The notes under the pieces: generated by a model
Database searches by the model: none
The model's input: only the letters and a program-made list of their open reading frames with translations
What the model was told of the DNA's origin: nothing
Translations under genes and position numbers: made by a program
Source of the DNA: an uncultured Gammaproteobacteria bacterium
GTDB taxonomy: Bacteria > Pseudomonadota > Gammaproteobacteria > CAWCPV01
Reading direction: 5' to 3'
DNA length: 64,000 bases
NCBI GenBank assembly: GCA_963797555.1
Contig: CAWCPV010000014.1
Coordinates: 469,774 to 533,773 of the forward strand
Part shown: one piece after another, positions 3,633 to 9,430 of the stretch
Numbering within the stretch: position 1 is the first letter of the stretch
Layout of the letters: each line of letters begins with the position of its first letter

Positions 3633-3693
3633 CGCCCCACGAACTTGTCATCCCCCAAGTAGATTTGTTGGCGTAGCCCCGCCCCCCTGTGTC

Positions 3694-4337
3694 CATCCCA
3701 TTACACACAACTCAAAGGGGGCCTCACGGGGCGTAGTGGAGTCCTGCGGCGAAGTCCATGACGCGCTGCAGCCCTTGCCAGAGGGTCTTCACGCCGGGCT
3801 CGCCGTCGGCCTTGCGCCCCAGGAAGCCACCGAGCCTGGCGATGAGGCGCACCACCTCGTTGAGGTGGGGTGGCTTCTTCGGTAAGCGTTTCTTGTTCAA
3901 GAGGAAGGCCGCCTGCCATTCGCTGCGATCGAACAGAAGCTCCGCATCCAACTCCGGACAGGTGCGCCCCAGGCGCATGAGGCGGGCGATGAGCCAGGCG
4001 ACCACCATGAATAGCGCCAACGCCCGTTCCAGGCATTCGAGGCTGCTGAGCTGCAGGGCCTCCACCCGGCAGACGTTCTTCAGCACGTGGAAGAAGAGGT
4101 TTATCTCCCAGCGGGCGCGATACCAGTCGATAAGATCCGCCGCCGCCTCGAAGCTGCCGGCCTCGCGGTTGGTCAACAGGCGCCATTCGATGGGTTTCAC
4201 GCCCGCTGGCGCGCCCACTTCCCGGGCCACGATGCAGGTGGCCTCCAAACGCCCCCCTTGCCGCCGGAGAGCGCCACACGCCTTGCGTACACCTGCTGGC
4301 GGACTTCCCGCGCCTTCTGCCCGTTGCTTGAAGGGAT
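3694..4337 (-). mobile_element. Truncated IS4-family (IS50/Tn5-like) element: right IR plus transposase C-terminus (3724..4248)
   Basis: IR catcccattacacacaactc at 3694; YRARWEINLFFHVLK (YREK-type motif) and GGFLGRKADGEPG; clearly homologous to 7150..8475 but diverged. Confidence 0.88.
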
Positions 4338-4823
4338 TTCAGCTATGGAGTTATCGCTGCGAATGCGGCTTTGTCAGATGGTGTTGCTCTGTTCTACGCA
4401 ACGCATGGCAACTTGGCGTCCACTGCCGACCCGGACACCACTGGGATCAGTGCTGCACTGGCGTTGGTGCGGGCGCAGACGGACGAGGCCGGCCGCTACC
4501 TGAGCTTGCCTGCCGCAGCGGTGCTTGTGACGCCAGTAAAGGAGGGGACCGCGCTGGCCGCGGTCACGTCCATGTGGGGGACCGACCCGGCGAGACCGAA
4601 GGTCGTTGCGGATGCCGGGCTGACCGCGGGGGACGCCTGGTATCTCGTCACCCTGCCGACCACCCGACCCAGCGTGCGTGTCATCACGCTTCGAGGCGCC
4701 GGACAGCCGACAGTCAACATGGGTAAGCTGCCAGGCTTCGACGGCGCGGCCGCGAAGATTCGGCATGATTGCACGGCCGTTGCGGTGGATTACCGCGGCT
4801 GCATCAAGACGCCGCTGTCATGA
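4335..4823 (+). pseudogene. C-terminal fragment of a phage major capsid protein (Mu gpT-like / prohead protease-capsid fusion type)
   Basis: Motifs recalled from this capsid family: ANAALSDGVALF..HGNL, RAQTDEAGRYLSL, WYL, FDG...KIRHD...AVDYRG..K. The 5' part is replaced by the IS4 fragment. Confidence 0.7.
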
Positions 4824-5363
4824 GCCGCCGAACGTTGACCACCCGTCAGGCCACAGCCGCCGCCAGATCGTTCATGGCGTCGGGCGTGTGCCCGCGTGCT
4901 CGCGTGACGTTGCCGGCCATTTGCGCCGGGCGCCTGTCATGACAGCCGCGCTTACGGTGTGCGCCGAACGTCGCTTGGCCCTGGCTGCTCTGGTTGCGGG
5001 CGATGAGTTGTTGTACCACGAGATTACACCCGTCACCGAGCTACCGCCCGGCGCGGTCCCGTGTCCCGCACCGGCGCGCGTCCAATGAGCCGATACGTCT
5101 GTATGCCGCCGCGTCGAAGGACGGCTCAGGCCCGTCCGCGAGGTCACTCTGGACGAAGGGCGCGAGCTGGCAGCGGCCGACCACACCCTTGTGGTGTTGC
5201 CAAGGTCCGAGGCCATTCGCATCTGCATGGGCGAGCCGCGGTCACAGGCCGGCGGCCGGATCGAGCGACCACGGCGCCAACGATAACCCACCGGCCGCAA
5301 CCTGCGCTGGGAACCGCGGGTGCGGGACAGCCGCCCGGTCGCCGGGCCACTCCCCCGGCGTGA
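4820..5363 (+). CDS. Chain of three short ATGA-coupled hypothetical ORFs (4820-4942, 4939-5088, 5085-5363)
   Basis: Each start overlaps the previous stop (ATGA) three times in a row, beginning at the capsid stop; followed by a terminator. Confidence 0.4.
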
Positions 5364-5372
5364 CGCGGCATC

Positions 5373-5542: not shown

Positions 5543-6115
5543 TTAGGGCAAAGTGTGCCGCACTCCAGTAGCTGGGTCGTATGCAGATACCTCCGAGCCT
5601 AGCGCCTCTGGCGTCTTTTCGAATACTGCGAGATTCTTGTAGCCCCGCCGGGCTGGTGACTCATAGAGCAACCCATCAATGCGTCCACACTTAGCACAGG
5701 CTTCACCGAGAACTTGTGTTTCTGCTGGGTTCCGTGGGCGCGGTGCTGTAGCATCTTCACCGAGCGACCGAAAGTTAAACTTGGGGACATCCGCGTCTAC
5801 ATCAAGGATCTGCTGAACACTCGGGTCGGTAAGATCAACCACTGCTTGAAGCTCCGCATCGATTGGCCAGAAAACCATGGGGTCTCTTCCCAAACCGAAG
5901 TATGTCTGAACCTCGGCGAGACACGTCTGTTCGTCCTGAGCCACGTACAGAACGCGGGCACCTTTTGCGAAGTTAAAACGTTGCGCTTCGATAGGCCGAT
6001 TCTTGCCAAGTGGATCATCGCCGTGGGCTTTGCGCATGGCGCGCCAGAAAGTCCCAGACAGCGGCCGCGAATAGAGGCTGAGCACAGCCGCGTCGAGGCG
6101 ATCCCCTTGATGCAC
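5543..6115 (-). CDS. RES-domain toxin (NAD+ phosphorylase / mART, MbcT/ParT-like)
   Basis: FWRAM (R), QRFN, VLYVA...CLAEV (E), IDGLLYESPAR (S), NLAVF: the typical RES layout. Confidence 0.88.
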   Translation of the reverse strand: MHQGDRLDAAVLSLYSRPLSGTFWRAMRKAHGDDPLGKNRPIEAQRFNFAKGARVLYVAQDEQTCLAEVQTYFGLGRDPMVFWPIDAELQAVVDLTDPSVQQILDVDADVPKFNFRSLGEDATAPRPRNPAETQVLGEACAKCGRIDGLLYESPARRGYKNLAVFEKTPEALGSEVSAYDPATGVRHTLP

Positions 6116-6127
6116 GATGGGGTCAAG

Positions 6128-6712
6128 TCACGCCGCGAGACCACTCTCAATCTCAGCGAGGAGAGATTGGATGCGGCTGATCTCTCCCCCGAGAATAACC
6201 GTCTTTGGTGAAGCACCATCCAGTGCGCCAATAGGCGTGCTCAACCATTCGCGCGCAAGTTCCGGCTGGTTCTCCACAACTTCAAGCACCTGTTGAAACA
6301 ACGCCCGTAGCGCAGCGAGTTTGCGCTCGTATTCATTGGATGCTTGGACACCGCCGACGAATTGAGCACCAAGATACGTGGCAATGTCGTCTGGTTCCCA
6401 CCCGAGCGTGTCCGCTAAGCGTTCCGCAGTGTCACGAGCCTGGATCTCCGTTCCGTAATACGACCACCTCACAAGAGTCTTTGGCGATGCGCGTCGCAAG
6501 ATCTCCTTTAGGCTGTCCTCTCCTGTTCCGGCTACCGGTTCAATGTCCTCCCATGGCGTTGACCCGCTGGGCTTGCCGCTTTTCGCGATCTCCGCAAAAA
6601 AACGCTCCAAGTCCCTTAAATCATCCACGTTGGACCTTGCGGCCTGCGCCAGATTGTCTTCACTCGAACGACTGGGAGGCTGTGGCTTGATCGCTAGTTG
6701 AAGGACTGCCAT
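6128..6712 (-). CDS. Xre/MbcA/ParS-type antitoxin (C-terminal toxin-binding domain) with long N-terminal extension
   Basis: C-terminus ELAREWLSTPIGALDGASPKTVILGGEISRIQSLLAEIESG matches the DUF2384-like pattern (WL..P..ALGG..P); lies directly upstream of the RES gene. Confidence 0.8.
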   Translation of the reverse strand: MAVLQLAIKPQPPSRSSEDNLAQAARSNVDDLRDLERFFAEIAKSGKPSGSTPWEDIEPVAGTGEDSLKEILRRASPKTLVRWSYYGTEIQARDTAERLADTLGWEPDDIATYLGAQFVGGVQASNEYERKLAALRALFQQVLEVVENQPELAREWLSTPIGALDGASPKTVILGGEISRIQSLLAEIESGLAA

Positions 6713-7131
6713 GCATCACCCTTTGATAGCTGATAGCTTAGTTACGACATGTTTGAGGAACGAATCCGCAGTTTTCTGAATGTCTTCGGAGGCGCGAAGT
6801 AGAATATCCAAGTCGAAGCGGGATGTCTCCGGCGTGGCTTGAATCTCGTGGTCCACATTGAGATTTATAACCGCTGCGTCTGGCGCCCGCTCAGACCGCT
6901 CCAGCATTGCATTTAGCTGGCGATCAACGCGTGGTTGGCCACTGATACTAAGGGGGTGCAGTGGATAGGTAATGGAGAGAGAACGGAACTGCGGCGCGAT
7001 TCCATCAAACGACAGTGCAAACGCACTGTCAGCGAGTACAAATCCTAGACTGTGCGCCACATCCGCTAGACCAGTCGTGATCTCGAAGCGAGAGTTGAGC
7101 CCATACGATCCAACCGGAGTTTCTTTAAGCC

Positions 7132-8546
7132 CATCCCATTACACACAACTCAAAGGACTTGAGCCTCACGCGCGTAGTGCAGTCCTGCCGCGAAGTCCAT
7201 GACGCGCGTGAGCCCTTGCCAGAGGGTTTTCACGCCGGGCTCGCCGTCGCCCTTGCGCCCCAGGAAGCCGCCGAGCCTGGCGATGAGATGCACCACTTGG
7301 TTCAGTCGGGGTGGCGTCTTCGGTGGGCGTTTCTTGTTCAGGAGGAAGGCTGCCTCCCACTCCTCGCGCTCGAACAACCACTCGGCCTCCAAGTCCGGAC
7401 AGGTGCGCCCCAGGCGCATCAGCCGGGCGACGCGCCAGGCGACCACCATGAATAGCGCCAGCGCCCGTTCCAGGCGTTCCATGGTGCTGAGCTGCAACGC
7501 CTCCACGCGGCAGGCGTTCTTCAGCACGTGGAAGAAGAGTTCAATCTCCCAGCGGGCGCGATACCAGTCGATGAGCTCGGCCGCCGCCTCCAAGCTGGCG
7601 GCCTCACGGTTGGTGAGCAGGCGCCATTCGACGGGCTTCACGCCTGCTGGCGCGTCCACTTCCCGGGCCACGATGCAGGTGGCCTCCAACCGACCCCCCT
7701 TGCCGTCGGAGAGCTTCACACGCCTCGCCCACACCTGTTGGCAGACTTGCCGCGCTTTTTGTCCGTGGCGCGACGGCATCGTGAAGCGTATCCCGCCCAG
7801 GCATTCGCCTCGGGTCACCTCCTCCCACAGCTTGCCGCCCTCGGGCAGCGCACGGTTGTGCCGGGAGCGGACCAACCAGTCGGCCGGCTGCCCCAGGTCG
7901 CGCGCTTTGGCCATCAGGGCTACGATGTCAGCCTCCCGGTCGGCTACATACACCAGGCGGGTCTGTGGAAGTTCGGACGCCAGCTCTGCCATGCGCTCAT
8001 AGCCCTCCACCCAGCGGGTGCTTTCCAGAACACCTCCCCGAGGGCCTTCGGCGTCCTTCGGCTCGCGTGCCCACATCCACGCATCCAGCACGCCCAAGGG
8101 CTCGCGCGCGAGCGTCACGGCATACGTCGGATGCAGGTACATACCGCGTTGCGCCTCATAGCTCAACGGCCCCAGGCCAGCGATGTCCTGCCCGTTGAAG
8201 TCCACCTCCGTGGTGTCTTGGATGCACAGCACGATTTCGTGCTCCCGCATCCGGGCCGCAGAACACTGCCAGTGCGGCTCCAGGATGTCCCGCCAGTCCA
8301 TCTCGTCGTGGGCAAAAAACCGGTAAGCTCCCTGGGTCTCGGCCCAGCCCCCACACGCTCCGGGAATGCTCGCGCTCGGCTTCTCCGCCAGCCGCTCGGC
8401 AAGCAACACGGCCCGCTTGCCCAGCCGCTTGTCGCCCAAATCGATGCCCCTAAATTCCTCCGCCGCCCAGCTCATCCCGACACCCCATCTTGTGACGTTA
8501 TGTCAGGATGTTACACGATTGTCATCAAGTTGTGTGTAATGGGATG
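7132..8546 (-). mobile_element. Intact IS4-family (IS50/Tn5-like) element, 1415 bp
   Basis: Terminal IRs catcccattacacacaact; perfect 9-bp target duplication CTTTAAGCC at 7123-7131 and 8547-8555. Confidence 0.95.
7150..8475 (-). CDS. IS4-family (Tn5-like) transposase
   Basis: MSWAAEEF..DLGDKRL, IQDTTE, VADREAD, YRARWEIELFFHVLK DDE motifs; uninterrupted 441 aa. Confidence 0.95.
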   Translation of the reverse strand: MSWAAEEFRGIDLGDKRLGKRAVLLAERLAEKPSASIPGACGGWAETQGAYRFFAHDEMDWRDILEPHWQCSAARMREHEIVLCIQDTTEVDFNGQDIAGLGPLSYEAQRGMYLHPTYAVTLAREPLGVLDAWMWAREPKDAEGPRGGVLESTRWVEGYERMAELASELPQTRLVYVADREADIVALMAKARDLGQPADWLVRSRHNRALPEGGKLWEEVTRGECLGGIRFTMPSRHGQKARQVCQQVWARRVKLSDGKGGRLEATCIVAREVDAPAGVKPVEWRLLTNREAASLEAAAELIDWYRARWEIELFFHVLKNACRVEALQLSTMERLERALALFMVVAWRVARLMRLGRTCPDLEAEWLFEREEWEAAFLLNKKRPPKTPPRLNQVVHLIARLGGFLGRKGDGEPGVKTLWQGLTRVMDFAAGLHYAREAQVL

Positions 8547-9175
8547 CTTTAAGCCGGTTAAAAGTTTCCGCCGCGAGTTCGATAATTCGACCCCGTTGGC
8601 CACCATGTGCCGTTGTTAACTGCCACCTAGTTGGCATACACTGAACTTCGAAAGTTGAGGTCGCAAATTTTGCCAGTTGGGGTAACACAAGCACTTCGCG
8701 CTGTGTGGCTTCCTCCGCGTCGTCCGGTGCCAGTATTTCAGACAGGCGATACCACTGCGGGTGATGGATCGCGGGATTCATAGCTCCGACCACAACCACC
8801 GAGTACTGAGATACAGTTATTTGCGAGTCCATTTCGCGCACGTGTTGTGGCCTCCGCGCATCAACTTTCACCGCCTGCACAGGTGAGGGTAGCACGAAGT
8901 CGCGCAATCGCGCTGCCGATTCCTCCCTGGGACCCCGGCCTGGAGCGGGACACCAGGGAAGACCCGCCGCCTGAGGAGGCGCAGGAGACCACTTCTTGGT
9001 CGACCCCATAGGGAGCACCCCCCACCATGGACCCCGCCATGTGCGCGCTGTGGCCGGCGCTGGTGGCGGTGCTGCTCGCTCTGAGCTTCTGCCATTTCAT
9101 GGGCTGAAGGCTTCATAGGACGCCCCAGGCGCCGCGATCTCACCCTGACCTATAGGGGAGAGCACCGACCCCCCT

Positions 9176-9309: not shown

Positions 9310-9387
<78 letters not shown>

Positions 9388-9430
9388 AGGTGACGCGGCA
9401 TTATACGGCACCGCCAGACGGCGGCCAAGG

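Follow-up and report, generated by a model that had tools for sequence, protein, structure and literature searches.

The stretch of DNA analysed here (the window) comprises 64,000 nucleotides from an uncultured gammaproteobacterium (GenBank assembly GCA_963797555.1, contig CAWCPV010000014.1, positions 469,774 to 533,773) and harbors three co-oriented, tightly spaced minus-strand genes that form one operon, the first of which is split by an insertion sequence (IS). Gene 1 belongs to a large unnamed protein family, gene 2 (6128-6712, minus strand) encodes a chimeric Xre/ParS antitoxin of 194 aa, and gene 3 (5543-6115, minus strand) encodes a RES-domain toxin of 190 aa with a GTG start. A gap of 3 nt separates the stop codon of gene 1 (6716-6718) from the ATG of the antitoxin (6712), and 12 nt separate the antitoxin stop (6128-6130) from the GTG of the toxin (6115). 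Both spacings had been given in a preliminary description of the window, made from its letters, and are confirmed by the coordinates.

The element that splits gene 1 is an IS4/Tn5-type insertion sequence of 1415 bp (7132-8546, minus strand), co-oriented with the operon and bounded by perfect 19-bp terminal inverted repeats (7132-7150 and 8528-8546). It is flanked by a 9-bp direct repeat, CTTTAAGCC, present as a target-site duplication at 7123-7131 and again at 8547-8555, where the second copy belongs to the gene-1 reading frame. The transposase (441 aa, 7150-8475, minus strand) scores 384.8 bits with NF033590 (cut-off 160, E value 4.7e-115) and also carries the Tn5 dimerisation and DNA-binding domains. 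Tn5 generates 9-bp target duplications, and the DDE transposase, the terminal inverted repeats and the 9-bp duplication together assign the element to the IS4 family (Tn5/IS50-like). Because the genome contains six full-length copies with about 100% identity, the element is still active and its insertion in gene 1 is probably recent.

Among the open reading frames (ORFs) of the window, the remains of gene 1 are visible as pieces at 8503-9018 and 6716-7060, both on the minus strand. The preliminary description had claimed that these fuse into a 230-aa protein once the insertion sequence is excised, and the coordinates, repeats and frame all agree with that claim. The N-terminal piece (8547-8832, minus strand) starts with an ATG at 8832, spans 95 codons plus 1 nt and carries the family motif VVVGAMNPAIHHPQWY, and the C-terminal piece (6716-7122, minus strand) is translated as 135 aa followed by the stop. 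Joining 8832 through 8547 to 7122 through 6716 gives 286 + 407 = 693 nt, or 230 codons and a stop. The N-terminal piece shows 53-57% identity to homologues P0002-P0005 and the C-terminal piece 37-45% identity to the C-terminal halves of homologues. Unbroken homologues of 229-231 aa are colinear over the join (...FxRLxETPxxxYGLN...), and a family profile of 220 positions covers the N-terminal piece with positions 4-96 and the C-terminal piece with positions 90-217. Given the colinear homologues and a profile that matches both pieces, the rebuilt 230-aa gene is real rather than a chance frame. A search of the genome with the family profile found no copy besides the two window pieces. Among sequencing runs, no RNA data set was listed as containing the region, and one study contributed four contig sets from soil metagenomes, which yielded mostly the insertion sequence with small bits of flank and no contig spanning an IS-free allele.

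Gene 3 was identified as a RES toxin by a match to PF08808 (E value 1.9e-16, 60.9 bits, cut-off 23.2). RES toxins degrade NAD+ or ADP-ribosylate phosphoribosyl pyrophosphate synthetase. Relatives of the window toxin number 29, at 34-53% identity, and the residues R46, Y57, E68 and S153 are invariant across 23 aligned sequences, namely the window toxin and 22 relatives. Since all four residues are retained, gene 3 apparently encodes an intact toxin. Its score against the NCBIfam ParT subfamily is 13.1 bits, with a cut-off of 110. A sequence search of the PDB with the toxin returned nothing, a pattern scan for RES relatives based on a single sequence also came up empty, and neither toxin nor antitoxin has a match in PHROGs. 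The nearest genomic RES loci, three out of three, are plain two-gene modules with antitoxins of 126-136 aa and no gene-1 relative upstream.

The antitoxin differs from those of the two-gene modules at its N-terminus. PF09722 (Xre/MbcA/ParS C-terminal) is found only at residues 144-191, where 24.6 bits against a cut-off of 24.5 is a borderline pass, and residues 126-194 align to positions 44-112 of the 112-position ParS profile NF049845 with 27.2 bits, under the cut-off of 90. For residues 91-194, the counterpart is residues 24-129 in the 129-aa antitoxin from a plain two-gene RES locus, at 40% identity (E value 3e-22). In contrast, residues 1-91 show 25% identity (E value 2e-6) to residues 1-88 of the gene-2 protein of locus L003, one of a set of cassettes headed by gene-1 relatives that is described below. 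Among the loci examined, this module of about 90 residues is confined to gene 2 of such cassettes. On these alignments, the antitoxin is a fusion of the cassette N-terminal module with a complete canonical Xre/ParS antitoxin. Short Xre antitoxins align to the canonical part with their N-terminal portion, which we take to be the helix-turn-helix (HTH) region. A PDB sequence search with the antitoxin gave a designed repeat protein as its sole match (E value 7e-4), overlapping the stretch read as HTH-like. The identities proposed for genes 2 and 3 in the preliminary description, an N-terminally extended Xre/ParS antitoxin and a RES toxin, are thus borne out by PF09722, PF08808 and the alignments.

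The family of gene 1 was delimited by a profile search of 1.84 billion representatives. At E<=1e-3 the search recovered 1543 proteins, a number that falls to 612 at E<=1e-10, and among the best 150 of the 1543 almost every protein has a length of 200-250 aa. The family is marked by the motif NPxIHHPxWY and by invariant or near-invariant residues that include G16, M18, N19, P20, H23, H24, P25, W27, Y28, C66, W71, T98, P99, G104, N106 and N185, and it is acidic, with a median pI of 5.7 and a pI above 8 in one of 122 members. No Pfam, NCBIfam, PADLOC or PHROG family matched the gene-1 pieces or full-length homologues. When the 122 members were compared with Pfam (E<=0.01), no family was found, SecB included, except for one stray zinc-finger match, and NCBIfam gave no family in common. 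A search of PADLOC-DB v2.0.0 (E<=0.1) with homologue P0004 and both window pieces found no PDC-M32A/B match; a single weak match of the C-terminal piece to PADLOC HamB (E value 0.0064) was dismissed as chance level.

In an AlphaFold model of P0004 (pLDDT 95.1, pTM 0.90), a beta-alpha-beta3-alpha unit occurs twice and builds an antiparallel sheet of eight strands, one face of which carries the helices. Foldseek searches with this model gave generic matches to AdoMetDC and TATA-binding protein (TBP) with E values of about 1e-4 and TM-scores of about 0.3; the TBP matches, with E values of about 5e-4 to 5e-3, reached probabilities of up to 0.99. SecB is absent among the Foldseek and VIA matches listed. 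The SecB-like fold raised for the third protein in the preliminary description consequently finds no support, considering the lack of a SecB Pfam match in the 122 members, the modelled eight-stranded duplicated beta-alpha sheet and the absence of SecB from the matches listed. A complex prediction for P0004 with residues 1-110 of its cognate gene-2 protein scored 0.10 and 0.00 against a mark of 0.32 and is used neither for nor against an interaction.

To establish the genomic context of the family, 20 metagenome and 36 genome loci were gathered, the latter all from metagenome-assembled genomes. After leaving out duplicates (L004, L007, L010 and L019) and two loci cut inside gene 1 (L020 and L022), 50 loci were analysed. 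The hosts of the genome loci include Planctomycetota, Myxococcota-type 'delta proteobacteria', Hydrogenedentota, Acidobacteriota, Trueperaceae, Nitrospirales, Methylococcales, Competibacteraceae and others, and within the class of the window the family is present in 7 of 400 genomes, a tally that includes genomes flagged unpublished. A second gene begins between -29 and +36 nt from the gene-1 stop in 47 of the 50 loci, and a third gene is found in 42; the remaining three loci show a contig edge or a fragment only. BLAST clustering, with the window included, separated the gene-2 proteins into 17 clusters and the gene-3 proteins into 18. A Pfam scan of 56 downstream proteins identified PemK/MazF as gene 3 of L028 (2.5e-13), HicA as gene 3 of L038 (4.9e-6) and a DUF5615-like protein as gene 3 of L053 (2.5e-4, under the cut-off), the last paired with a gene 2 showing weak similarity to DUF433. 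DUF7689 occupies the gene-3 place in three cassette loci, and several gene-2 proteins end in HEAT repeats. The preliminary description had asked whether homologues of the 230-aa protein co-occur with toxin or antitoxin genes; relatives lie immediately before tightly coupled gene pairs in 47 of the 50 loci, and recognised toxins (PemK/MazF, HicA and DUF5615-like) occur in some of these pairs, so the refuting condition set there does not apply. The gene-1 family heads 'plug-and-play' cassettes with variable pairs of gene 2 and gene 3.

The gene-2 proteins have little in common beyond their extreme N-terminus. A start of the form M[AP][VILFT], a motif defined after inspecting the data, is present in 28 of 46 gene-2 proteins, compared to 1 of 49 gene-1, 4 of 41 gene-3 and none of 30 gene-4 proteins; the window antitoxin itself starts with MAVLQLA. 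Within the large gene-2 cluster, likeness between loci with different gene-3 types lies in the middle or C-terminal parts, and the C-terminal domains otherwise follow gene 3.

Two further types of third gene were seen behind gene-1 relatives. Distant gene-1 relatives with NPAIFSPDW or NPSIFHPEW in L096-L098, from the same class as the window, are followed by a gene 2 of about 190-200 aa and then by a protein with an HWHDDH motif that, by eye, resembles a hydrolase of the metallo-beta-lactamase fold (L096, 2781-3638; L097, 2724-3650; L098, 2707-3582). In L015 (2289-2750) and L016 (2238-2699), the 153-aa gene-3 protein contains 'ALDTGGG', reminiscent of retropepsin-type aspartic proteases, and has no Pfam match at E<=0.1.

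The preliminary description had also likened gene 1 to TIGR04255, a comparison that stands for fold and operon position and fails for sequence membership. TIGR04255 bears the name 'sporadically distributed protein', and its three-gene cassettes are uncharacterised. The TIGR04255 hidden Markov model (HMM; cut-off 30 bits) matched none of the 122 family members at E<=0.01 and none of four close homologues at E<=10, while the same HMM finds three true members elsewhere in the genome of the window. Profile comparison with hhalign was not significant either (E value 0.18 with two sequences; 0.011 at a probability of 3.9% with 22 sequences). A TIGR04255 protein of the window's genome nevertheless shares with P0004 the order of secondary-structure elements and the PDB neighbours, and in the ESM Atlas P0004 lies beside clusters automatically named TIGR04255 (feature score 0.95, structure TM 0.74). 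In fold and in operon position, the gene-1 family corresponds to TIGR04255.

TIGR04255 itself occurs in 22 of 151 genomes of the window's class, a tally that again includes genomes flagged unpublished. In the 22 TIGR04255 loci analysed, from which unpublished genomes were excluded, a gene 2 is present in 21 and a gene 3 in 20, most of them tightly coupled. The gene-3 proteins, assigned by eye, include HNH-like (L059) and PIN-like (L069, L089) types as well as a recurrent 'SQ[DS]CD[IL]...NPRxLH' type. The two groups of cassettes are alike in first-gene position, variable partners, element order, PDB neighbours and one effector type, which L099, a distant gene-1 relative, shares with the TIGR04255 cassettes through its SQ[DS]CD[IL] protein. 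They differ in the motif NPxIHHPxWY and in the gene-2 start M[AP][VILFT], both peculiar to the gene-1 family; a longer version of the gene-2 start pattern is found in 1 of 21 TIGR04255 gene-2 proteins.

The SQ[DS]CD[IL] effector was seen in the gene-3 place of TIGR04255 loci L067, L068, L077, L086, L087 and L090, which also have NPRxLH, and at 2459-3325 of L099. The genome of the window carries TIGR04255 cassettes of its own: L059 (G000:C14:207772-211434) encodes a 247-aa TIGR04255 protein followed by proteins of 169 aa and 218 aa, the latter the HNH-like one, and L060 (G000:C3:136979-140689) encodes proteins of 249 aa, 182 aa and 143-192 aa in the same order. A third, weaker match (53 bits), in a frame of 361-392 aa at L061 (G000:C9:226405-230148), lies beside another IS4-type transposase gene. 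Encounters between IS elements and such cassettes recur in this genome.

The operon has a G+C content of 53-58%, compared to 64-70% in the flanks, and it lies between a capsid remnant and a tRNA-Pro gene, in agreement with the preliminary description on both points. The tRNA-Pro(GGG) gene (9311-9387, minus strand; ARAGORN) marks the boundary of the lower-G+C block. The prophage remnant (4371-4823, plus strand) is the end of a gene for a protease/major-capsid fusion, of which the final 150 aa are preserved (phrog_4523, 3.4e-23; phrog_133, 1.4e-17), and covers positions 484-642 of the 644 in the phrog_4523 profile. A related IS4-type element that is older and truncated (3693-4337), 80-87% identical to the active one (87% over query positions 1-638), abuts this capsid gene; it shares its first 26 nt exactly with the left end of the active element, and it was probably the older copy that truncated the capsid gene. 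A 19-nt direct repeat with 89% identity (5353-5371 and 9383-9401) brackets the lower-G+C block, one copy overlapping the 5' end of the tRNA-Pro gene; it could be a scar of integration or a product of chance, and as an att repeat of the tRNA it is unconvincing. A promoter scan found no minus-strand site upstream of gene 1. The lower-G+C block beside a tRNA gene, the prophage remnant and the IS copies fit horizontal acquisition of the three-gene operon. The proposal that the cassette travels as phage or satellite cargo is not supported as a property of the family, of which no relative was found among INPHARED phages, PLSDB plasmids or IMG/VR at the sensitivities used; for this cassette, roles as phage or satellite cargo and as a defence system are conjecture.

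In the tripartite toxin-antitoxin systems known to us, the dedicated third protein is in most cases a SecB-like chaperone, and some of these systems sense phage capsids. The literature covered, with supplementary tables outside its coverage, held no description of the gene-1 family or of a tripartite RES system, nor of TIGR04255 or DUF7689. RES-Xre type II modules (MbcTA, ParST and relatives) are two-gene toxin-antitoxin systems in the available text of PMC6436930. The window operon resembles them in its last two genes, with an R/E/S-conserving RES toxin preceded by an antitoxin that has an Xre/MbcA/ParS domain and 40% identity in the canonical part. It differs from them by a third gene 3 nt before the antitoxin and by the module of about 90 residues, absent from the three nearest relatives, and both proteins score far below the NCBIfam ParT and ParS cut-offs. 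In toxin-antitoxin-chaperone (TAC) systems, exemplified by mycobacterial HigBA with a SecB-like chaperone and by CmdTAC and related phage-sensing systems (PMC5105189, PMC6377645, PMC11618068, bioRxiv 10.1101/2024.02.24.581848), the antitoxin depends on a SecB-like chaperone through a C-terminal ChAD tag, as far as the available portions of two of these reports describe (PMC5105189, PMC6377645). The window operon is likewise tripartite, its accessory protein is conserved alongside differing toxin-antitoxin families, and its antitoxin has a segment that two-gene relatives do without. Unlike in TAC systems, the accessory protein of the window family is not SecB-like by sequence and its gene is placed first, and the extra antitoxin segment is N-terminal (1 to about 90), the ParS profile reaching the last residue with no C-terminal ChAD. 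Moreover, knock-out of the accessory gene is tolerated in the genome of the window.

On the whole, the best explanation, held with middling confidence, is that a RES pair was recruited into a gene-1 cassette in which gene 1 controls the antitoxin via the N-terminal module. The gene-1 protein would act on the antitoxin through this module, holding or releasing it, and release of the toxin would then depend on a signal. Such an arrangement would amount to TAC-type logic in which the protein is not of the SecB type and the tag sits at the N-terminus instead of the C-terminus. For gene 1, a role as switch or sensor is more likely than one as obligatory stabiliser, because its knock-out by the insertion sequence coexists with an intact-looking toxin and antitoxin. 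The cassette in this genome would be reduced to a plain Xre-RES pair, and since the insertion sequence points in the same direction as the operon, genes 2 and 3 could still be expressed by read-through. As for the tripartite RES system of the preliminary description, the tight three-gene operon stands; what it most likely represents is not a special RES system but a RES pair recruited into a wider class of cassettes.

Several observations weigh against this explanation. RES is the gene-3 protein in none of the 47 other loci, and the extended antitoxin is represented only by the window's own protein in a collection of 5.8 billion proteins; with RES found only in the window and no other copy of the extended antitoxin, the RES version could be a one-off recombinant. 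Most gene-2 and gene-3 partners match no known family, so a toxin-antitoxin nature is established for few cassettes only, and the near-duplicates kept in the count (L015/L016, L009/L011 and L002=L023) overstate the independence of the loci. It may be that the insertion sequence shut down the entire operon, and the argument from knock-out tolerance would then fall. An action of gene 1 on gene 2 is suggested by comparative genomics, and the invariant residues H23, H24, N19, C66, N106 and N185 resemble an active or metal site more than a chaperone surface.

The appearance of these residues, together with the conserved W27 and Y28 and the conserved extreme N-terminus of gene 2, would suit an enzymatic gene-1 protein, such as a Cys/His hydrolase or modifying enzyme, that acts on the gene-2 N-terminus or on the toxin to arm or neutralise the cassette. 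Type VII antitoxins neutralise their toxins enzymatically. No catalytic motif of hydrolases or modifying enzymes was identified in gene 1, which is also without a nucleotide-binding signature or a Pfam or NCBIfam match, and we consider an enzymatic role unlikely. We are similarly doubtful of an obligatory chaperone of the TAC type, in which the N-terminal extension would destabilise the antitoxin unless gene 1 holds it, leaving the cell addicted to gene 1. The three-gene architecture and the extended antitoxin would be expected of such a system, and the TAC papers, in their available portions, describe the same logic for SecB-like chaperones with a ChAD tag at the C-terminus (PMC5105189, PMC6377645). 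Yet gene 1 is disrupted here while the toxin keeps R46, Y57, E68 and S153 and the antitoxin is whole, none of the 122 members has a SecB Pfam match, and the extension lies at the N-terminus rather than the C-terminus.

Gene 1 might instead encode a transcriptional repressor of the operon that binds DNA through a TBP-like saddle, as its place as the first gene and the Foldseek matches to TBP with probabilities of up to 0.99 would allow. In omega-epsilon-zeta systems the first gene encodes the repressor. This role is quite improbable considering that the family is acidic (median pI 5.7, with one of 122 members above pI 8), that the TM-scores to TBP are only about 0.3 and that the canonical part of the antitoxin already aligns with the presumed HTH region of short Xre antitoxins; it also leaves the conserved gene-2 N-terminus unexplained. 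Finally, an Xre-RES pair could have landed beside, or recombined into, an unrelated gene with no functional link. IS copies and a prophage remnant give the region a mosaic structure, RES accompanies the gene-1 family in the window only, and the extended antitoxin is unique, all of which are compatible with chance adjacency. However, the 3-nt gap between gene 1 and the antitoxin is the same as in the intact cassettes L002, L003 and L005, and the fusion respects the cassette architecture, since the antitoxin bears the N-terminal module of cassette gene-2 proteins. A chance adjacency is therefore very improbable.

Recruitment of a RES pair into a gene-1 cassette, with gene 1 acting through the N-terminal module, would have consequences beyond the window. 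The gene-1-type family takes the place of the third protein before at least 18 unrelated effector types, and it is much larger than the SecB-like set and entirely unnamed. Of its cassettes, the RES cassette is the most informative one, as its parts can be assigned to a textbook Xre-RES pair, one extra module and gene 1; because the pair gained only the N-terminal module and gene 1, the role of the module is directly testable. More tentatively, and as a possibility rather than an expectation, the NPxIHHPxWY and TIGR04255 families may together represent widespread, SecB-independent three-gene toxin cassettes, in which a saddle-fold protein grips an N-terminal antitoxin tag, senses infection or stress and frees the toxin, and into which any two-gene pair could be recruited by tag fusion. 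If this link is true, a function would emerge for both of these large groups of 'hypothetical proteins', along with a route by which two-gene toxin pairs become signal-dependent systems.

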